Positions 15,604 through 62,511 are shown, counted from the whole stretch's first letter. The stretch: 63,665 nucleotides of DNA, filler included, from Rozella allomycis CSF55 (GCA_000442015.1; 4 parts of 4 records of this genome joined end to end with filler, not necessarily neighbours in it); one strand, 5' to 3'. The notes: a model not told the origin generated them from the letters alone. Program-made: numbers and translations.

Positions 15604-15628
15604 TGGAGTTGGAGGGTATCGATCCCTC

Positions 15629-15660
<32 letters not shown>

Positions 15661-15676
15661 TCTGAGCTACAACCCC
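15604..15676 (-). tRNA. tRNA-Ala(AGC)
   Basis: GGGGTTGTAGCTCAGATGGTAGAGCGCGCGCTTAGCATGCGCGAGGTAGAGGGATCGATACCCTCCAACTCCA; cloverleaf, G3:U70, T-run terminator. Confidence 0.97.
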
Positions 15677-15771: not shown

Positions 15772-17563
15772 ATGAGGCAATACTCAACATTCCTGGCGAA
15801 TAGTCATTTTAGCAAAACAATTCCCAAAACAAAGCTCTTTCTGAACGGCGAGTTTGTTGACTCGAAGGCTACCCATTGGTTCCCTGTTCGAAATCCAGTA
15901 CTCATGTCTATTAATATTCACATATTAGGCTACCCAAGAAATTGTTAGTTTGACCCCTCAATGCACAAATGAGGAGCTTTTAGAGTCCTCTCGAATCTCG
16001 CAACTTGCTTGTCGCGAATGGAGGAAAACGACTATTCTAACAAGACAAAGAAAAATGTTGGATCTGCAACATTTAATTAGAAATTCTATCGTATAACGCA
16101 CTTAATTGTCTGATAGGATGACATAGCGAAGTCTATTGTTCAAGAGATGGGGAAAACACTGAGTGATGCCAAGGGAGATGTTCTTCGGGGCCTGCGTAAA
16201 TATGTTCAATTTTAGTCACAGAGGTTGTCGAACATGCATGTAATATCACCTCATTGCAAATGGGAGAAACTCTCGAAAATGTATCTTCTCATATGGATAC
16301 CTATACAATTAGGCAGCCTCTAGGAGTAACAGCAGGTATAAAGATTTAGATTAATATTAAAGGCATCTGCCCTTTCAATTTCCCTGCAATGATACCATTG
16401 TGGATGTTCCCTTTATCTATCGCATGTGGAAACACAATGATAATAAAACCATCAGAAAGAGATCCTGGGGCAATGATGATATTAGCCAAACTAGCGAATG
16501 AAGTAGGTATCCCTAAAGGGGTTCTCAATGTTGTCCATGGAGGCAAAGAGACTGTCGAATTTCTCTGCAAAGATAAAAATATAAAGTCCATATCTTTTGT
16601 TGGATCAGATAATGCTGGAAAATACATACACTCCACTGGAACATCTTATGGCAAAAGAGTCCAAGTAAATCGTTTTATTAATTACAATTTGGCCAACATG
16701 GGAGCAAAAAATCATGGAGTGGTCATGCCAGACGCCAACAAAAACGATGCTTTAAATGGTCTTGTTGGCGCTGCATTTGGCGCTGCTGGACAAAGGTGTA
16801 TGGCATTAAGTACTGCCATATTTGTTGGTGAAGCTAAAAACTGGTAAGTCTCTTGTTCTGAAAAATTTGAGGATTCCTGAGTTAGTAGAGCGAGCAAAGA
16901 AATTGAATGTAAATGAAGGGAATGTAGAAGGTGCTGATCTTGGACCAATGATTTCCCCAGAGGCAATAAAGTTGTAAATTAATTATAGGCTAAAACACGT
17001 GCGTGCAATCTGGTTCAATCTGCAGTTGATGAAGGTGCTTCATTACTGTTAGACGGTCGAAAGATTAAGGTAACATTTAACTCGGTCTATAAACAAGGTT
17101 GTCGGGTATGAAAATGGGAACTTTATGGGACCCACTATATTATCAAATGTGAAAGTCTCCATGAAAGCTTACAAGGAAGAAATATTTGCGCCAGTTTTGC
17201 TCTGCATTGAGGTTCCGAACTTGGATGATGCAATTGAACTCATAAATAGAAACCCATATGGGAATGGAACAGCCATATTTACTCAATCAGGTGCGATAGC
17301 GAGAAAATTTCAGACTGAGATCGACGTAGGCCAAGTATAATATAATGTGAATCTTTATGTAGGTGGGTATAAACGTCCCAATTCCTGTCCCTCTCCCTAT
17401 GTTCTCATTTACTGGTTCAAGAGGCTCTATCTGTGGTGATATTAATTTTTATGGAAAATCTGGAGTAAATTTTTATACTCAAATTAAGACAATTACAAGT
17501 CAATGGAAGGTTGAGGATTCCTCCCATACAAAATCGGCCTTGCACATGCCTGTTATGAAATAA
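15772..17563 (+). CDS. ALDH6A1: Methylmalonate-semialdehyde dehydrogenase
   Basis: [65 protein letters not shown]; 9 small introns incl. one GC-AG and one probable GT-TG. Confidence 0.97.
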
Positions 17564-20263: not shown

Positions 20264-20336
20264 GGGGTTGTAGCTCATTTGGTAGAGCGCGCGCTTCGCA
20301 TGCGTGAGGCACGGGGTTCGATTCCCCGCAACTCCA
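20264..20336 (+). tRNA. tRNA-Ala(CGC)
   Basis: GGGGTTGTAGCTCATTTGGTAGAGCGCGCGCTTCGCATGCGTGAGGCACGGGGTTCGATTCCCCGCAACTCCA followed by poly-T. Confidence 0.97.
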
Positions 20337-23034: not shown

Positions 23035-23134
23035 NNNNNNNNNNNNNNNNNNNNNNNNNNNNNNNNNNNNNNNNNNNNTTAATTAATTAANNNNNNNNNN
23101 NNNNNNNNNNNNNNNNNNNNNNNNNNNNNNNNNN
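23035..23134. other. Artificial scaffold linker
   Basis: N44-TTAATTAATTAA-N44 (stops in all six frames). Confidence 0.97.
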
Positions 23135-23902
23135 GAGAAAATATCCATCGCCTTTTTCAAATCAAATCCATACGCCGCAGATTCCTTATGCGAAGATGGG
23201 TTGAAAAACCTTTCAGGGGCAATACAACACGACCTTTTCTCCGAAGCATCAAAAAACAAATAAAAATCCGATGGATTATTCTATTTCAATTAATACATTT
23301 ATATACTTCAGGCAGAAATGTAGGCTTGTAGTTTCCTATATCTGACAAGTACGCCCATCCGCCCGTAGAAATCAATACATTTTCACTTTTAATATCCCCA
23401 TGCACAATCTAATATTACACAAAAGCAATAATTACATTCTTATTGTGCAGCGAAGACACAGCTTTCAATAACTGAAACAGAATCCATTTCTTTTCAATCT
23501 TCTCCAAAAACGGCCTCGTTCCAAGCCGATTCTCCAAATTAAAAGAAATATAGCTCCGCTCCATAATAAACATGTACTCATCTTCAACAAACGGCGAACT
23601 TAAAACATTCCAACCATGAATACACTCACACTGACCTCTAACCCCATACACACAAACTTTACTATTGTATTTCGCCAGAATCTCTGATACATCTATACTG
23701 CTCTTGGACGGTTTCATGAATATTTTAACAAGCTTGTCATTCGACATGCAAAACGATTTTGTTAATCGGCCTCGTGCTTTCCTTTATTGTGTAGATTTAA
23801 TGAGTACGTTTTGGTAATGTGCGCTGGCGACATCTTGTCATTGATTATTTCGTATGGCGAGAGCAGTAATTGGATATCTTGATATGAAAGGGAATTTCCC
23901 AT
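23135..23902 (-). CDS. VPS15: VPS15/PIK3R4 5' portion (kinase-like domain), copy A, truncated at linker
   Basis: MGNSLS myristoylation start, LVKIF, NLENRLGTRPFLEKIEKKWILFQLL, HGDIKSENVL, YKPTFLPE-NNPSDF, CIAPERF. Confidence 0.9.
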
Positions 23903-24001
23903 TTTTGACTTTTCCAAGTATAAAGTAGTGAAGCACTGAATAGGAATGGAAAACTGGTATAAAATGGAAAGTTTGTAAAGATTAAAGTTTATTGAATGTT
24001 A

Positions 24002-24295
24002 AATCACCGAAAATTTCCGAAAATTGAAAATCTCGGAAAAAGATTGGGCGACAATAAACTATCAGAAACCGACTTCAATAATAGATATTTTTTATTTAAC
24101 CCCTCAACCCTAACCCTTTACCCTAACGAACCCTAACACTACCAACCCTAATCCTCCCTAACAACCCTAAAAACTCCCTAGCAACCCTTACATTCCCCGA
24201 AAATAACACTTTCGATAAATTGTACTTTAAGAAACCACAGTCCACAGAGGAATATTTTTTTGGAGATTTTCGGTTTTCGGAAAATTTCGGTGATT
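24002..24295. repeat. ~39-bp inverted repeats enclosing a degenerate CCCTAA (telomere-like) array at ~24096-24190
   Basis: Left aatcaccgaaaatttccgaaaattgaaaatctcggaaaaa vs reverse complement of right aatcaccgaaattttccgaaaaccgaaaatctccaaaaa; inside caaccctaaccctttaccctaacgaaccctaacactaccaaccctaatcctccctaacaaccctaa. Confidence 0.85.
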
Positions 24296-24614
24296 CAGGT
24301 CGGCATGGCAAACTCCCCAAAAAGTAATGTTTGAGTTTGTGAAAATGAAAACACGCAATTTCGGGCTCAAGGGAGTGGAGTGGACATGTGGCACGTGATG
24401 CAACTGACCAGGGTTGTCCCGTGATGGCGTTCTTCAAACTTTTGAGTGTTTTGCGCTGGTCAAAGTGAAAGATCTACAATATGATTTTTCAGGCGTGATT
24501 ATAAATATGATTGAAAAATACTGAGCATATGTAACAGTAACATCTTCAATGTAAATGATTTATTCACCTCATAGAATGCCTCCCCGTCCAGTTAACGAGC
24601 ACTGCGAGACTTGC

Positions 24615-26114
24615 TTAAATTTCAAAAATCTCTTTGTAGAAGTTTATGGCTTCCTGGACATGTGAAATATCAACTTCACTCGAATATGAAATTTTCGCAA
24701 AACCATGTGCCAGTCGTATCACAGTTCTGGCCTCTCTAAACCCAAATTTTTTAGACTAAATAGTATAAAATAGAAATCATTACCAAATACATGTTTTGCC
24801 TCAGTTTAGACAACTCAGTAGTGAGACGCATTTTCATTTCGTCGCCAATTCTCGTCTCAAAATTCTTCATTTTCTCAATTTCTGGCATTAAATTGATATC
24901 ACGTTCCATAATGTTCCTTTCATCCTCGTTGAACTTTTCTCTAACCAAGGCATTAGCTAATTGTCTGTCCCCAAAAAGATTGTATTTGTCAATAGATATG
25001 ATCACTAGATCAAATCTTGACAACAACGCTCTATGTACTCCAATATTCTGCACTACGTTCATCAGAGGATCAAATACAATATTCCTGAAGTTCGCTGTGG
25101 CACATACAGCAACATCCGCAGGATATTGTTGGTGAAAAAAATGTTTATTTATTGTCACCGTTTTTTGTTCCATAGCCTCGTGAAGTACGCCTTGCAGCCC
25201 ATCCGGCATTTTGTCCAGTTCGTCTATTTCTTGCAATCAATTTCATTACCAATTAATACGTGCTTTTTGTTCCCAAGGACCAAAGCTCCGGGCTCTATGT
25301 TCGAGTTCACCACAGAAGCAGTCAAGCCAGCTTCAGTCGAAGCGGGACCAGTTACTGACACACATGGGACAAGGCATTCCATTTGTCTAGTTTTGCAAAT
25401 AAATTATAAGTACCGTAACAATTTGGACTTAGCGGTGCCTGGATCCCCTACATGTAGCACATGCAATCTACATATCGCGCTCATGAGCAGAGCCTTTTTA
25501 ACCTTGTCCATCATGACGACCTCAGGACAAAGCATGTTCACCATGTCGGCGAGATTTCTGTGCTTCTGAGGCTCCTGTAGAGGATAGTGTACTTGTTCAC
25601 TAGCCTCGTACAAGCAACAGAAATCCGTCTTGCTTACGTAACCCACAAAGGACATTTCTTTTCCTGCAGAGCCCTGAAAGTCACTATGCAATATTAATTG
25701 GACATACTGATTAAAGTTTTAATGTTTGATTACTTTATCACATGATAAGAGAGTAATTTCTTGTGTTGGCATTCTATCGCGAACAAAGATCGTCCCAACG
25801 CTAACAATCTTCCCAGTGATGACTCTCAGTTTTTTCAAATCCCTTTCTTTCACTTTTGATTTAATTTTGCATAAAGACGGAAGATTTTTAAGCCTTACTT
25901 TGACCCTCTGCCAAAGTGCCCTACCTATTTCGAAGTTTTCGATCAAGGACATCGCTAAACCTTGATCGATCGAAAATATTCTGGACCAGTCCAAACAATC
26001 ATCCTCCGCATGGGCTAAGGCTCTTTCATATTGTTCAGAAACCTATTGGAGTCGCAATGAATGGATTACTTCATTTAGGTTGACTAATTGTATGTTTGAT
26101 GCTAGTTGGTTCAT
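24615..26114 (-). CDS. Short divergent MCM-family AAA+ helicase (~450 aa)
   Basis: HVLHVGDPGTAKS Walker A, STEAGLTASV, IEPGALVLGN, LIDELDKM Walker B (after 26-nt intron), LHEAMEQ, ALLSRFDL arginine finger; 5 GT-AG introns. Confidence 0.85.
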
Positions 26115-26857
26115 GCCGGGGTGTCTAACCCGCCGAAAAGGACTAAGGAAATTCATTGAATTGATCGTCCCTTCTTTTTCCAGTATTAGCAAAATATCAC
26201 TGAGTCACTGACTAAAATGTAACCACATTTTATCAATTAATGGTAAAATAAAGAATGATTCTTGATTTCTCGGGAAGGATTTTTATAACGAGTTTAGAAA
26301 GTTAACCATTAAGATAAATGCGAATATATAAAATATATTATAATGACTGGAATTAATTCCCATTTAATGTTTTACAACATTTTTATATGACTTTATTCCT
26401 TGGGCGTAATGTCGCCAACCTTTCAGATTGAAAATCACCTTTATTCCCTTTCGACTCAGCATTATTGTTCGACACTGCATTGTTGTTTTTAAACTCAAAC
26501 CTTCGCTTTGCCGGAAGACCCATTGTCCAGAAATCGCCTTCATCTATAATATTTTAGTTCCGTTGTATTTTCACTGCTATAAGGTGATCATGTAGCATCT
26601 TGAGGACTCGGGATATTATGATCAGCTTATCTTTTCAGCTTTCATATTAAAAAATAGTAAAATGGAGTATCTTGGCTTAGACCAAGAACATTTTGCTCTA
26701 GATGAACACGCCATGGTGGTATATAAAAGCATCTACGTAAGACTAAGAGAACCGGCTGCTGTATGATGTCACACATGGGTTTACATTAGATCGGAAACTG
26801 GTAATTGTCTAGTTGTCGTCCAATAACTCTCTCGCGTGAATGCACGACAAAAAACTA

Positions 26858-27274
26858 TCAACACAGAGTGCATTCATTGCTTCCATGATCTCTGTCGTGA
26901 TCCTTTCCGTGGTCTCTATCGCGGTCTCTTCTATGGTCTCTGTTACGGTCTCTTCTATGATCTCTTTCATGATCTTTTCCATGACCATCTAGTTTATTAT
27001 CATTTCCTTGTCCTTTACTTCTTCTGTCGCCATCGCGAGCTACATCATCATACTCATTAACACATTGACTACTATATCCGTCACAAACCTTTCTTCTTTT
27101 ACATTTGGGTATCGCAGTGACTGTAGGGAGGGACTCTGTCTTGGTTACAGTTTCACAAAACCCAGTTTTCGTAACGACCGGAGGAGTTTCAACTGTGACC
27201 TCAGTAGTCATAACTGGAGAACAAGTAAGTTTCACAGTTTCAGTAACTGGAATTAAGGTTTCTTGGACAGTGGA
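26858..27274 (-). CDS. 3' part of Thr/Val/Pro-rich, RDH-repeat protein (likely secreted/cell-surface), 5' end lost at N
   Basis: TVQETLIPVTETVKLTCSPVMTTEVTVETPPVVTKT... then DHGKDHERDHRRDRNRDHRRDRDRDHGKDHDRDHG 12-nt repeats. Confidence 0.55.
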   Translation of the reverse strand, partial: STVQETLIPVTETVKLTCSPVMTTEVTVETPPVVTKTGFCETVTKTESLPTVTAIPKCKRRKVCDGYSSQCVNEYDDVARDGDRRSKGQGNDNKLDGHGKDHERDHRRDRNRDHRRDRDRDHGKDHDRDHGSNECTLC

Positions 27275-27275
27275 N

Positions 27276-30200
27276 CAGTAAGTTTGTGTGTATGGGTTTA
27301 GAGGCCAGTGTGAGTGTATACATGGTTGGAATGTTTTGAGTTCGCCGTTCGTGGAAGATGAATACATGTTTATTATGGAGCGGAGCTATATTTCTTTTAA
27401 TTTGGAGAATCGGCTTGGAACGAGGCCGTTTTTGGAGAAGATTGAAAAGAAATGGATTCTGTTTCAGTTATTGAAAGCTGTGTCTTCGCTGCACAATAAG
27501 AATGTAATTATTGCTTTTGTGTGATATTAGATTGTGCATGGAGATATCAAGAGTGAAAATGTATTGATTTCTACGGGCGGATGGGCGTACTTGTCTGATA
27601 TAGGAAACTACAAGCCTACATTTCTTCCTGAAGTATGACAGAAATCAATTAAATGAAATAGAATAATCCATCTGATTTTTATTTGTTTTTTGATGCTTCG
27701 GAGAAAAGGTCGTGTTGTATTGCCCCTGAAAGGTTTTTCAACCCATCTTCGCATAAGGAATCTGCGGCGTATGGATTTGATTTGAAAAAGGCGATGGATA
27801 TTTTCTCGTTGGGGTAATTTTATTGTTTAGGGTTAAATTGATGTGTAGCTGCGCATTTATTTTTGGAGGAGCCGTTGTTTACGCTGTCTAGTTTGTCAAA
27901 GTATTATTCTGGTGAGATTGATGTATCAGAGAGACTTAATAAAATAGAGGACGAGGGTGTTACAGTATGAGATTGAATATTCAAAGATAGAAAATGATTT
28001 TGAATATGATTGATCCATTTCCTGAAAACAGACTTTTGATTGATGAATATTTTGAGGTTTNTTTGGGGTAATTTTATTGTTTAGGGTTAAACTGATGTGT
28101 AGCTGCTCATTTATTTTTGGAGGAGCGGTTGTTTACGCTGTCTAGTTTGTCAAAGTATTATTCTGGTGAGATTGACATAACAGAGAGACTGAATAAAATA
28201 GAAGATGAGGATGTTACAGTATGAGATTGAATATTGAAAGATAGAAAATGATTTTGAATATGACTGATCCATTTCCTGAAAACAGACTTTTGATTGATGA
28301 ATATTTTGAGGTTTTTAATTCAATTTTTCCAGATTATTTTTATAATTTTTCTTTTGAGTACATTGGATCTTTAATTGCGTCGAAAACAGTAGAAACTTTG
28401 GATGAGAAAATTCACAAAATATTTAACGATTTTGATAAAATTTTATGCTCTTTAAATATTTCTATTGATGATGTTAAAGTTGAATGCTATGAAATTGAAA
28501 TTCCAAATGTTAAAATACCACGAAAACGTCAATTGAAGTCTGATGGAGTGTTAATCTTTTTGAATGTTATTTTTTCGTTTCTTCCATTGTTGAATAACTT
28601 GGATACAATTGAAAAAGCTGCTGAGATTATTTTTGTGCTTGGATTGTTAGCGAGGGATGAAATAATCCTTGAAAGAATCGTTCGTTATCTGGTTTTGATT
28701 TGTAACCACACGAATNTCAACGATTTTGATAAAATATTATGCTCTTTAAATATTTCTATAGATGATGTTCAAGTAGAATACTATGAAATTGAAATTCCAA
28801 ATGTTAAAATACCTCGAAAGCGTCAATTGAAGTCTGATGGAGTGTTAATCTTTTTGAATGTTATTTTTTCGTTTCTTCCATTGTTAAATAACTTGGATGC
28901 AATAGAAAAAGCTGCTGAGATTATTTTTGTGCTCGGATTGTTTGCGAGGGATGAAATAGTCCTTGAAAGAATCGTTCGTTATCTGGTTTTGATTTGTAAC
29001 CACACGAATGAATCTTATTTGATATCCAACTGTGTTTATTATATAACATGTTTAATGGAAAGTATTGAGAATGTTCCAAAGTTTGAAGTTGACTTATTTT
29101 TGGAATATTTGTTTCCCGCCCTTTCTCATCTAGTTTCCCATCCAGATCAATCAGTGAGATTCTGCATGGCCAAACATTTACCCTCTTTAATTAAAGTTGC
29201 AGAGAAATTTTTAAATATTAGTGATGAAATAAACAGTTCAGTTAGTAGCAACAGATTTTCTCAGTCAGATTTGTTTTCAGATGATTTTAGCATTAATCGC
29301 CCATTTGATTCTGGTGTTGGACATTTAAGACAGCAAGTTGAAGAGATGATTCAATTGCTTGTTGTTGACAATGATGTTAACGTTAAAATTAAAGTTGTTG
29401 AATCGCTTGGATTTTATTTCAACTTTTTCACGAATCAAAAGACTAGAGACACTATAATTTCACATGTTATAACGTTTTTAAATGAACGGAAATGGGAATT
29501 GAGAAGCGCTGTGATATTCTCATTGAAAGATGTTGCAAACTTTGTTGGTCAATCAACATTTGAACAAATATTTTTGCCTGTAATTCTACAAGGGTTATTG
29601 GGTAATAAGATTGAATGAAATGAATAGATGAGGAAGAGTGTGTGATAATAACAACAATTAAAACTTTGTCTCATCTTTCAACTAGTTTGAAACCTTTGGT
29701 GTTTAAGAAATTCATCAATAAAGTAACACCCTTGTTGGTTCATCCTGATTTTGAATTAAGAAATTGTAAAATTCAAATTTAAACATTAAAATTAGCTGCG
29801 ATTGAATTTATTTTAAATTTGTATGAAAATTGTGATTCAATATTCAAACTTTGCTTGGTTATTCCTTGTTTAGATTTATATTTATCAAAACCTTTAATCA
29901 AGATAAATTTTGAATTAATTCATGAATTTTTAATTCCACCAGTAGAAATTTAATTGATTTCATTCATTAAAGATTCCAACTGAACTTTACAATTATGCAG
30001 CTCAATGGTATTTGAAATCTAAAGATTTGTTCTTGATGGATGATGAATCAGAAGAATACAGGCGAATGATCACAATGGGAATGACGCCCCTGCAAGAGAA
30101 ATTTCTTCTCTTGTTGAAACCTTTTTATAGAAAGCCTTCATCACTAAGTTTAGAAACTGGATTTATTTCACTTGATCCTAAAGACATTAAATCGTTTGAC

Positions 30201-30328
30201 TCTTTTGATTACGAATTAAACACTCTGGTAACAAATGTGTATAAGCTTGAAAGACTATTGGCAACAACAATTTAAACTGCACAGTCAAATTCAAGGAAAG
30301 AGCAAATTTTAATGATATTGAAGATTAT
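27276..30328 (+). CDS. VPS15: VPS15/PIK3R4 copy B (kinase C-lobe plus HEAT repeats), with internal duplications at N 28061 and 28716
   Basis: Near-identical to copy A over the overlap; DIFSLG-CVAAHLFLE; DEIILERIVRYLV, LFLEYLFPALSHL, IISHVITFLNERKWELR HEAT motifs. Confidence 0.9.
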
Positions 30329-30428
30329 NNNNNNNNNNNNNNNNNNNNNNNNNNNNNNNNNNNNNNNNNNNNTTAATTAATTAANNNNNNNNNNNNNNNN
30401 NNNNNNNNNNNNNNNNNNNNNNNNNNNN
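30329..30428. other. Artificial scaffold linker
   Basis: N44-TTAATTAATTAA-N44. Confidence 0.97.
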
Positions 30429-36652: not shown

Positions 36653-36726
36653 TGTTCTGATCCAGGATCGAACTGGAGACCTTTCGCATGTAAAGCGAAC
36701 GTGATAACCAACTACACCATCAGAAC
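36653..36726 (-). tRNA. tRNA-Val(TAC)
   Basis: GTTCTGATGGTGTAGTTGGTTATCACGTTCGCTTTACATGCGAAAGGTCTCCAGTTCGATCCTGGATCAGAACA, poly-T after. Confidence 0.96.
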
Positions 36727-44435: not shown

Positions 44436-45975
44436 TTAAACATTTCGTTCTGCGTTTAAATCATTTGAAGAGTCTCGAAATTCTTGGGCTATTTGTTCAG
44501 CAATGACTTTTGAAGAAGATACGCATTCTCTTAAGGACACTCCGCCTTTCCAGCACCCAGTAGCCAGCAAATTACCATCATATTCATCATTTAACATGTT
44601 TACAATATCTTTTATCCTTTGTTCATGACCTAAATAATATTGTGGTATACATTTTCTTTGTATATTCAAAGATGCAGAGATTGGTTTGACATTTGAAGGG
44701 ATATTTAGATATTTTGAAATTTCTTGAATTGCCGTTCCAAAAATAACTTTTTCTAATTCCTCCCCTTTGAAACGACCAAAATATTTTTCAAATAGAAACC
44801 CTCCTAACAAGACGCAAAAGTTTGTTGCGGACGAATCCCAACCAAAGATATGTGAATTATTTATGCATCCAAGAACTGGAGTGTCTTCAGTTGATGAACA
44901 CTAGACAAAAATTAAATGAAATTCATTACGAGAAATCCAAAATGAGGTAACGACTGCTTTACGTTAGAATCGTTGTAAATCAAATTGACAATTCCTACAT
45001 CAACATACTCAATAGAGTTTAATGCGTTTTGCAAAGGTTCGTCTTGTAACATTCGACTCAAGCTGAACGATGGTACAGATGAAATAACTTTATCATAACA
45101 TTGTACTCTGTGAGCCGAAGGTGAAGAAACCTATCCATCTATTGTTATTAAGTGAATTACCTTGACTTGCCCTTGTGAATATCTTAGCTGTTCAACTTTA
45201 GCATCTTTAAATATTCGCACATTCTTTCTTAAAAGATAACTCTCAAGTCCTTGACATAAGGATTCCATGCCATTTTTCATTCCAAAGATCACTTCGTTTT
45301 TTAGTATTTCATTCATATATTCATCATTGGTTTCTTGCTGATTCGGATTAATTTTTTTCTTTATATATCTTATCAGTGATCCTCTAGATATCGACCCATA
45401 CGCTTGATCAAGTTCAAAGAGTTTTGGCTGGACGCACTTAACACTTATTCGGCGAGAATCCCCAGCAACAATACCTTTAGTTAATGCCGAGAACATAATT
45501 TCTGCTGGCCACACACCCGCTTTTCTGGTAATGAAGTCATGGGTTGTTTCGTCCTCTAATACCCCTCTTGTTGAAAAGAAATCTTTCGCCAGCCCTTTCA
45601 ACATTGGAAAGAAAAACTTTTTTCCCAATATGTTAAATGGATAAACTTGTCCATCTATGACCATGGCTGTGGAGCGTCTGTCTATGGAAATGAACTTTAG
45701 ACTGTTGGACATTCCAATATCTCGTATCTCTTAATATTTATATAATCAATTACCATATCTAGTATGTCAATAGACCCTTTGTTGATATGCACTGTCCTTG
45801 GCCCATTTTCAATGAACATGTTTGATTTGTGCAATTTCGACTGGATCCAACCACCCGTTCTATTTGAAGCTTCGTATACATCAATAGCAGCGTTAGGAAT
45901 ATATCGCTTAATAAAAAATGCACTTGAAAGTCCTGATATACCCCCTCCAATTACAGCAATTGATGGCGCTGACAT
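44436..45975 (-). CDS. HEM14: Protoporphyrinogen oxidase
   Basis: IAVIGGGISGLS FAD motif, EASNRTGGWIQS, ENGPRT, CIPQYYLGH, GVSLRECV; 3 introns. Confidence 0.9.
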
Positions 45976-58400: not shown

Positions 58401-61400
58401 TTTGAAACTCCAATTTAACACAATTCTCAAAACATTTTCTTAAATGCGGCTGAACAGCTGATGGATCCTTTGTTTGAGATAAAATTTGAAGCAATTCATC
58501 ATCACTGAGAAAAAAGAATCTGGGAAATATCAATCTTTTGCTCTCCAAATACGCTGACAATCCTTTAGCCACTTGCTCCAATAGCTTATTGCATTCATGA
58601 AATTGTTCCAACAGTTTATTATCACTACAAAAATCAATCATCGATGGTTTGTTTCTTGCCTGGATCATTATCTTTCTCCAAATTCTATCCATCGTCACAA
58701 ATTTCTTGCTTTCATTAGGCAACTGCTTTGATATATCATCAGATGAAAATATCGGCTCCAAATACATCCATGATCTTTGACATGTCATCCATTCTTCCAT
58801 CACTTCTTGCACAATCTTCAACTTTGACTCCCACAACGATATTCTGTCTTGAAATGGTTTTCTAAATGGGGAAAAGCTCATGGATTGCGTCATCACAATA
58901 TGATCATCCAATTGTCTCAACGCTTCTTCACTCACTTTCATGATATAAGTTCCTGTCTCTCTGTAATTCAAAATATCTAAATTCATGTCCATCCATTCCT
59001 TTTCCATCTTATCCAACGACGATTCAATTGAATATTCCTTTCCTGCCACATCACAGATCTTGGTTATCGTTTCAATCTTACTCAACAAATTCATATCCAA
59101 CAATTGCGTCAATGTCCTACACTTAACAGCAATCAATATATTTACCAACTCTCATCTGGATGCAACGGTATATTCAACTCTGCAGACAATCGATCCCAAT
59201 GCCTATCTCTCATCCCAGGGTTCCTCAGCGCTTGAATCAACGGAAGCTTCGTCTTGAATTCATCCATCTCATTCTTAATCTTGGTCGCCACTCCAAGCAC
59301 ATTCGGTATCTGCTTAAAACTCTTCATAACTTTAATAACAGTTCTCCACGCCGAATTCAAATTCTTATCAGTCTCTTCCGCTTGAATCGCTAAAAACGAT
59401 CCATACAACCACGACTGTCTCCATTTCACCCAATCAGAAGTCGTCAACCAAAACTGCTTGAACGGCTCAAACTCTTTAGACAGATTACTCAACTCTTCAA
59501 ACCTCGTGATCGGCATTTCAAACAAATTCTCACGCGAATTCACCTGCTGCGCTATCGTCGTGCATTCCTTCAGCTCCAATATGATCTTATACACTTCACT
59601 CACAATTTCATTAATCTTCTCTATATCATGGTACTTTGAGAAATCAGCAATAGAATTGCCCAGCTGGTTGATCCGCTCCTTGAACACCTCCTGGTCGCTT
59701 ACAAAGTTCTTTTGAAAATTATTATAATCAACAACAATCTGTTCCTGCGTCGTTTTAATCAACTCTTCAATCTTTGTTGGCCATGCAAACGCGAGCCACT
59801 TTGCTTTGAAATCCTCATTCGCCAGCTCGTACCGGAATTTCTCCAATTTGTCAAAATCTACAAGCATGTCGTTGATCCTTAATTTCTGGATTTGCATAAT
59901 CTCTGGTATCGTCTTCATATACTCCTGAAGCTCTACAAGCTCTTCTATACTCAACACTTTTTCCTTCAACTTTAGCTGGATTTGGCTAAACACATTCGAT
60001 ATGCTCGACGCTGTCTTGCTGGTCTTCTTGGCAAATATATCAAGCACCACTTTGGACAGGTCTTTGCGCAATATATTCTTGATTGAATCACAATTAATCC
60101 AGAACAATCCCACATGGATATAGTTTGGAATCTCCTTGTTAAGTACCTCGCTCTGCTGAATGTGGTTCAATACATCCAATTCCATCTCTTCATTTGTCTT
60201 ATTCTTGCTTTCATACTCAATTTGATACTTTGTTGTATCCAACGTGATCAAATTCATGTACTTGTCATACTGTCTCACATACGCCTCAAGTGGTACAACA
60301 CTGTCGGTTAATATCTCTTGAATTCTCTCTCTAACAGAATACACAAATGAATCATTTTCTCTGACAGTTTCAAGATTAGGCTTGCTAGACCAAAACAGTT
60401 GATCCATTATCGCCTGCTCCAATTGCGGTAAATTCTCTAAAGCATTCAATGCCTTATCAATCAAAGCATTTATAGACACTTTATAGTTGTTCAAGTCAAT
60501 ATTATATTGCAATTTTCCATCCTTGTAAATCAAATCCAACATAAACAATGGTTTCTTGATTTGATCATTATCATTCACACAACTAATAGAATTGGTTCCC
60601 TCAACTTTGATGCTCATTGGCTTTGATTGAAACAACATTTTCACAAAATCATTCAAGGAATTTATAACCATATATTTCAATGCATCTTCCATGGCAAATC
60701 TCACACAAGCCATGAATTTCTTAAGTTTGGAAATATTGTATACTTCCATGCTCTTTTCCTGCAAATTAAACCATCCTTTTCCTACTTCTTTTAAACCATT
60801 TCTGATAATCAACTTTATGCCAGGCAACCAACTATTGTTAACAAAAACACTACATAATACTTGTCTCTAATCATTGCCTTAATTGAATTAATCGAGGCTG
60901 TTTGCATTTGTTCAAATTCATCCAGTTTCACAGTTTTGCTAATGTTCAAATTGAAAATACTCGTTTGAGCGATTCTCTCACATTCAAGTCTCACTTTAGT
61001 CCAAGTTTTAAACACCTCCGGATTAGTAATAAAGGTACTAAATTTGAATCTTCTTTTTTGGTCTTCAAAGTCATACTGAACCTTGTTCTCTATATCCCTT
61101 TTAATATGACTGATACTACAATCTTACCATGACTTTTCATATGATTCTTCAACAAAAGGGCTAGGAATTTCTTCAAATGCGCACAACGATGAGTTATCTT
61201 TCAACTTTGCTAGTACTCGATTTATCTTACTTGGTTCTCAAGGCAAATATGATTCATAGTACGCACATAACTCAAGCGGATCTCTTTCTTTGCAGCTTCT
61301 ACCCACAAACCACTAACAACATTTTTAGTTCTTGTCAAATATCTACAGGTTGCATTTTTCATGATTCTCTCAACTACAGCTTCAGAAATTTCAATGCATC

Positions 61401-62411: not shown

Positions 62412-62511
62412 NNNNNNNNNNNNNNNNNNNNNNNNNNNNNNNNNNNNNNNNNNNNTTAATTAATTAANNNNNNNNNNNNNNNNNNNNNNNNNNNNNNNNN
62501 NNNNNNNNNNN
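62412..62511. other. Artificial scaffold linker
   Basis: N44-TTAATTAATTAA-N44. Confidence 0.97.

Follow-up and report, generated by a model that had tools for sequence, protein, structure and literature searches.

Can a housekeeping gene depend on a spliceosomal intron that closes with TG rather than AG? The question is raised by a block of 27 nucleotides (nt) at positions 27814-27840 (+) of a DNA stretch from Rozella allomycis CSF55 (GCA_000442015.1), 63,665 nt long and hereafter called the window, in which the block interrupts the coding sequence of VPS15, the regulatory subunit of PI3-kinase. That a U2-type intron should terminate in AG is among the strictest rules in gene expression. The block begins with the donor GTAATT and ends in TG, and we consider it probable that it is a real spliceosomal GT-TG intron of a functional VPS15 gene. 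This reading is the only one to fit, because it alone agrees at once with homology, with the exact abutment of the two flanking exons on known proteins, with the length rule of the local introns, and with purifying selection on both sides of the block.

The exon upstream of the block (27662-27813, +) follows a 29-nt GT-AG intron (27633-27661) and encodes part of the VPS15 kinase domain, ending in the residues DIFSLG with the codon of the last glycine split as GG/N. The next kinase exon (27841-27967, +) starts with (G)-C-V-A-A-H-L-F and is followed by a 26-nt GT-AG intron (27968-27993). When compared with structures in the PDB, the translation of the upstream exon matches residues 178-227 of yeast VPS15 (E 4.4e-7) and residues 178-206 and 234-245 of human PIK3R4, while the translation from 27842 onward (CVAAHLF...) matches residues 246-286 of the human protein (E 0.054) and 228-259 of the yeast protein (E 0.9). 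The E-values of the downstream exon are each weak when taken alone; the weight lies in how the alignments of the two exons abut without gap or overlap, between residues 227 and 228 in yeast and between 245 and 246 in human. The motif that spans the junction, D-[IL]-F-S-x-G-C-V...L-F...E-E...L-F, is uninterrupted in all five distant homologues, the total that a protein search gave, at 27-31% identity. One distant metagenome orthologue carries the same uninterrupted motif and is intron-less at this site; a scan of prokaryote genomes for relatives at the intron site found none. The assignment of the gene to the VPS15/PIK3R4 family follows from an MGNSLS start of the N-terminal myristoylation type (seen in an inverted copy of the 5' part, described below), from a kinase-like domain with PDB matches in three exons, and from a HEAT/helical region in the remainder of the gene on this contig (28315-30328, +; Pfam HEAT E 1.7e-6). 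The match of that region to the VPS15-like helical domain is weak, at 21.9 bits under a cutoff of 27.

A preliminary description of this locus had placed the junction at TCG TTG GG/A TGT GTA GCT, around a 27-nt GT...TG block whose removal restores the conserved motif and whose retention gives an immediate TAA, with two out-of-frame AGs nearby. The sequence reads exactly so. The upstream exon ends in TCG TTG GG at 27813 and the downstream exon starts with A TGT GTA GCT at 27841, and the glycine, cysteine and valine of the motif are encoded in frame only after the 27 nt have been removed; the abutment on the yeast and human proteins and the motif in the homologues bear out the claimed restoration as well. 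Retention of the block would bring in two in-frame stops, TAA at 27815-27817 and TGA at 27839-27841. The AG ending at 27830, inside the block and 17 nt from the donor, shifts the frame, as does the AG at 27847-27848, located 8 nt past the TG and the first AG at least 25 nt from the GTAATT donor: if it were used, the intron would be a GT-AG one of 35 nt, the reading frame would shift and a stop would be reached at 27889-27891. We enumerated all GT-AG, GC-AG and AT-AC pairs whose donor lies in 27740-27834 and whose acceptor lies no further than 27899, which yielded 58 pairs. None of these canonical pairs around the site keeps both conserved flanks, and the 13 that are in frame and free of stops are all 78-141 nt long, each deleting at least 17 conserved residues. 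Excision of the 27 nt is thus the one event that yields the conserved protein. The block has the donor and the length of a canonical U2-type intron and lacks the AG at its 3' end. The same mRNA would result from a cut one base to the left (GG...TT), so that the DNA agrees with either placement of the borders; the consensus donor argues for drawing them as GT...TG.

A number of other explanations for the interruption were tried and rejected. Elimination of DNA as in ciliates, or an alternative genetic code, does not agree with long open reading frames (ORFs) that are open under the standard code, nor with the borders of the 27-nt block, which are not TA...TA. A nested double splice of 17 + 17 nt removes 34 nt and is out of frame. 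Finally, a gain or loss of bases in the stretch of Gs at 27811-27814 was dismissed, as three DNA runs show no indel.

The block occurs in two versions in the window, the second at 28068-28094. The preliminary description took this second version for a duplicate copy of the gene, and argued that two separately assembled copies made a sequencing error unlikely. A second version with TG does exist, and it differs from the first solely at 27838 (T to C), intron position -3. It is, however, a haplotype mis-joined at an N rather than a tandem duplicate. Positions 27809-28060 and 28063-28314 (+) form a head-to-tail repeat, 95% identical, whose halves meet at a single N (28061). In all, 7 of the window's 11 single Ns (28061, 28716, 42891, 46121, 53468, 61816 and 62966) separate head-to-tail copies of 30-291 nt, 90-100% identical, which look like haplotype bubbles that the assembler has written out in tandem. 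Such copies create false in-frame gene duplications: a second one in VPS15 itself (28425-28715 and 28719-29009) adds 98 extra codons at 28425-29009. In a DNA run designated X2, the two versions were found as two contigs with identical ends, spanning 27778-27903, at depths of 258.4 and 258.6. One of these contigs equals the first copy, while the other carries the variants of the second copy plus a variant at 27808, a position upstream of the start of the duplicate in the window. Since the second contig runs on into what precedes the first copy on its upstream side, both versions occupy the same genomic place, and the "second copy" is therefore the other haplotype of one locus (or of two near-identical loci), mis-joined in tandem by the assembler.

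The 5' part of VPS15 is also present as a second-haplotype copy in inverted orientation at 23135-23905 (-), at the beginning of the same contig; it supplies the 5' end that the first-haplotype copy lacks, with a start codon at 23902-23900 and a 26-nt intron at 23782-23807. Its segment 23135-23659 (-) is 96-98% identical to 27280-27807, and its PDB matches to VPS15/PIK3R4 reach E 2e-7; it reaches the edge of the contig at the position that corresponds to 27807, and so stops 7 nt before the intron. At the intron itself, the TG (27839-27840) is unchanged and without indel in both haplotypes in contigs of the DNA runs X1, X2 and X5, which come from three studies (X1 may be the window's own source) and range in depth from ~4 to 517. 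A sequencing error as the origin of the TG is thus very unlikely, as the preliminary description had held; the grounds for this are two haplotypes and several data sets, and not two gene copies.

The existence of two haplotypes allowed us to examine whether the gene is still alive. Substitutions between the haplotypes were counted with the method of Nei and Gojobori and evaluated with a Fisher test. Upstream of the intron, 156 codons contain 12 synonymous changes and 1 non-synonymous change (dN/dS 0.019, p 2e-8); downstream, 161 codons contain 13 synonymous and 10 non-synonymous changes (dN/dS 0.19, p 1.3e-4), and dS is 0.14 on either side. The low dN/dS on both sides implies that translation of both parts in the frames given has continued ever since the haplotypes diverged. 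This speaks against the pseudogene that the preliminary description had named as a possible refutation, and, considering that the constrained frames lie on either side of a 27-nt block with two stops, the block must be removed in frame. Differences between the haplotypes bracket the TG at 27808 (6 nt upstream of the intron), at 27838 (inside it) and at 27853 (13 nt downstream of it), and consequently the TG is older than the haplotype split and was not spread by recent conversion. VPS15 has thus stayed under purifying selection while carrying the TG.

Two side observations concern the haplotypes. The second VPS15 intron is 29 nt long in one of them (27633-27661) and 26 nt in the other (23300-23325, -), with 7 differences including a 3-nt gap, while the neighbouring introns differ at one position each, such as the canonical 27-nt GT-AG intron at 27504-27530 (+). 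In addition, a dS of 0.14 is very high for alleles, and could reflect an old asexual or hybrid genome, or two co-cultured strains.

To judge how well the block resembles the introns of this genome, we used as a reference set the 57 ORF-joining GTA...AG introns of 25-31 nt in the window. The most frequent length in this set is 27 nt (20/57), exactly that of the candidate. Its GTAATT donor scores at the 49th percentile of the local introns, and the flank of the TG site, scored with the last two bases excluded, ranks at the 72nd percentile among real acceptors, or at the 33rd when taken from the other haplotype. The flank of the AG at 27848 reaches the 14th percentile, and the 4th in the other haplotype. 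Many local introns end in AAATAG, where the candidate ends in AAATTG, and skipping of an internal AG, as the block requires for the AG at 27830, is found in 33 of the 57. In a wider survey covering 18-80 nt (188 events with a GTA donor, noise included), there were no ORF-joining events of 35 nt. The position preceding the last two bases carries T in 31, A in 16, C in 6 and G in 4 local introns. The preliminary description had read the T/C difference at -3 as toggling between pyrimidines in the manner of YAG, and to this we give no weight: it is a single polymorphism, A occupies the position in 16 of the 57 introns, so that it is not strictly pyrimidine, and the change fits a branch word equally well, being the first base of TTGAT/CTGAT at 27838-27842. 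Branch words are themselves sparse here, TRAY occurring in 24/57 and YTRAY in 18/57 local introns; as few of these introns have YTRAY, the absence of such a word within the 27 nt and its occurrence ahead of the downstream AG decide little.

With regard to the lower end of the length range, two introns, 45728-45753 (-) and 59117-59145 (-), skip an AG at 24 nt and join the ORF at the next one (26 and 29 nt, respectively), which suggests a hard minimum intron length of ~25 nt in Rozella allomycis. Intron lengths were not found in the literature on Rozella allomycis introns.

Of the 3' sites of U2-type introns that depart from AG, TG acceptors are documented best. In the 36 human genes in which they were verified, the TG was always an alternative to an AG no more than 28 nt away, position -3 being a pyrimidine and +1 a purine; Szafranski et al. 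proposed that AG is required early, while TG is selectable late (Szafranski et al. 2007, PMC2374985). Further human examples are cited in PMC4176328, and a transcript-based annotation of Ganoderma lingzhi contains 22 GT-TG introns, or 0.024% (PMC11590231). GT-TG introns are already known as a rare class, to which the VPS15 case would add a member. Like the human TG-AG tandems, the VPS15 site combines a U2-type GT donor and a TG 3' end with T/C at -3 and A at +1, kept over evolution, and has an AG nearby, 8 nt downstream and well within the human limit of 28 nt. The pyrimidine at -3 and the purine at +1 are found at the VPS15 TG as well, a weak point of agreement given that A/T-rich flanks are the local norm. 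The product of ligation at the TG appears conserved, judging by the exact abutment, by the motif in 5/5 homologues and by the TG common to both haplotypes. Unlike the human tandems, however, the neighbouring AG in VPS15 is out of frame, so that the TG would be the only productive acceptor; moreover, the intron measures 27 nt and not hundreds, and is known here from DNA. The candidate resembles the Ganoderma lingzhi introns in belonging to a tiny minority among GT-AG introns in a fungal-type genome, whereas the borders of the latter come from full-length transcripts and those in VPS15 were drawn from homology and selection. With the mini-introns of its own genome it shares the GTAATT donor, the length of 27 nt, the A/T-rich 3' flank, in-frame stops in an intron of 3n length and a skipped internal AG; it departs from the canonical ones in having T, and not A, at -2. 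Introns of the U12 type, which may have a non-AG 3' end, are recognised by an RTATCCTT donor box and a TCCTTAAC-like branch box. The candidate is unlike these, its donor being GTAATTTT and 27814-27848 containing no box resembling TCCTTAAC.

Several observations weigh against a GT-TG intron, and they are best considered together with the main rival explanation, which some of them favour: splicing would remove nothing but the canonical GT-AG intron of 35 nt (27814-27848), and the gene, frameshifted and stopped at 27889 in both haplotypes, would be dying or retained for regulation only. All of the 13 high-confidence introns use as their acceptor the first AG that stands at least 25 nt from the donor, and by this rule the AG at 27848 would be the expected acceptor. 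The best branch-like word of the region, TTGAT or CTGAT depending on the polymorphism at 27838, lies 7 nt before this AG in both haplotypes, and would serve the 35-nt intron. In the human study cited above, TG is never the sole acceptor, and mutants in which AG has become TG turn to neighbouring AGs (PMC2374985). In structural terms, A at -2 is paired with the branch adenosine, and G at -1 with the first G of the intron; in yeast, U at -2 of the 3' splice site causes a strong second-step defect (10.1101/212811). The window also provides no sign of a general relaxation of the AG rule. It contains 13 breaks of an ORF at a GTA donor for which there is no GT-AG solution, and the VPS15 site is the sole convincing one (two of the 13 were checked by listing ORFs, one proving antisense to a long ORF and one preceding a start codon, and the rest were dismissed by eye on position or context); it is thus a single case among ~57-95 introns. 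No RNA data set was listed as covering 27276-30328, none of the contigs of an RNA run (X10) selected by species label fell on 27276-28060, and the C-terminal third of VPS15 is off the contig, which ends at 30328 before the WD40 region. The 35-nt intron nevertheless meets strong objections: the frame downstream of the TG is the one under purifying selection, with a dS equal to that upstream; the 8 extra nt that it removes encode the conserved C-V in frame; its length is beyond the 25-31 nt of the local introns and unmatched in the survey; and the flank of its acceptor is poor in both haplotypes. We therefore regard it as unlikely.

Excisions that keep the frame by other non-canonical borders seem less probable still. 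Removal of 36 nt as GG...AG (27813-27848) would use a real AG, and the fungal annotation mentioned above counts nearly as many GG-AG introns as GT-TG introns (20 against 22; PMC11590231), but it passes over an entirely sound GTAATT donor that lies just one base off, is outside the local length range and deletes the G-C-V that is found in the five homologues and in yeast and human VPS15. Shifting the 27 nt one base to the right (TA...GA) belongs to the same improbable group. A long canonical intron of 78 nt (27814-27891), the shortest stop-free in-frame canonical pair available to the GTAATT donor, would make the 17 codons in between intronic. These codons align to a conserved helix in human PIK3R4 and in the five homologues, and the length far exceeds the 25-31 nt range; we consider this option very improbable. 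Considering the quality of the assembly, with its single-N haplotype duplications, inverted haplotype copies and contig spacers, one might finally suspect that the TG is an artefact of assembly or sequencing and that the true genome has AG or a nearby indel; with contigs from three DNA runs of as many studies agreeing on 27839-27840 and lacking an indel in both haplotypes, we consider the chance of this to be slight in the extreme.

If the block is indeed a GT-TG intron, its splicing could proceed as follows. The U2-type spliceosome would pair with the GTAATT donor and branch at an A upstream of the TG, branch sites being degenerate in this genome. The second step would then ligate at the G of the TG, within the 25-31 nt from the donor where local acceptors always sit, and in an A/T-rich, acceptor-like context (AAAT-TG compared with the frequent AAAT-AG). 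The likeliest origin of the TG would be one A-to-T change at -2. The AG downstream would form a TG-AG tandem with it, and may either aid early recognition of the 3' site or compete with the TG, in which case 35 nt would be excised, the frame would shift and translation would end prematurely. We infer that use of the TG may be possible yet inefficient, or may be helped by the tight distance between donor and acceptor in mini-introns. A bolder version, which we put forward tentatively and think less likely to be right than wrong, holds that the TG is constitutive and the sole productive acceptor, the 3' site being set mainly by a ruler of 25-31 nt from the donor, so that the G is ligated without an A at -2 and ahead of a true AG 8 nt further on.

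As for the surroundings of the gene, the window has a GC content of ~35%, has long ORFs as expected for a eukaryote with the standard code, and includes genes for a histone H2A with an SQEL end and for a C2H2 zinc-finger protein. Spacers consisting of 44 N, TTAATTAATTAA and 44 N, with stops in all frames, occupy 23035-23134, 30329-30428 and 62412-62511. These three spacers divide the window into separate contigs strung end to end, and two genes with a spacer between them need not be genomic neighbours; the contig bearing VPS15 is 23135-30328. The HEAT/helical part of VPS15 contains further GT-AG introns at 29602-29627, 29766-29795 and 29942-29972 (+). Three tRNA genes were found: Ala-AGC at 15604-15676 (-), located a short way upstream of an aldehyde-dehydrogenase-like gene (start near 15773), Ala-CGC at 20264-20336 (+) and Val-TAC at 36653-36726 (-). 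On the VPS15 contig, an ORF of 175 codons (26858-27385, -) is a separate gene that abuts a mis-join at 27275, and has a low-complexity tail rich in His, Asp and Arg that derives from a 24-nt repeat at 26880-26995. The N at 27275 couples unrelated sequence to the first-haplotype copy of VPS15, which hence lacks its first ~75 codons.

For genome annotation, the locus shows that the assembly's single-N "duplications" are haplotype artefacts, and that this VPS15 gene will be broken by gene callers that admit no borders other than GT-AG. For the organism, a gene with a housekeeping role appears to rely on the TG acceptor of an intron of 27 nt, and to have done so for a long time, as the haplotype dS of 0.14 indicates. 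Should RNA confirm the splice, VPS15 of Rozella allomycis would offer a simple natural system for the choice of the second-step site in an intron barely above the minimum that the spliceosome handles, a way of testing if an AG close by is required, and a gauge of the amount of unproductive splicing that a cell can bear. And if the TG were in addition constitutive and chosen by distance, it would be the first TG acceptor to serve as more than an alternative to a productive AG, and a natural test case for distance-based choice of the 3' site in mini-introns.

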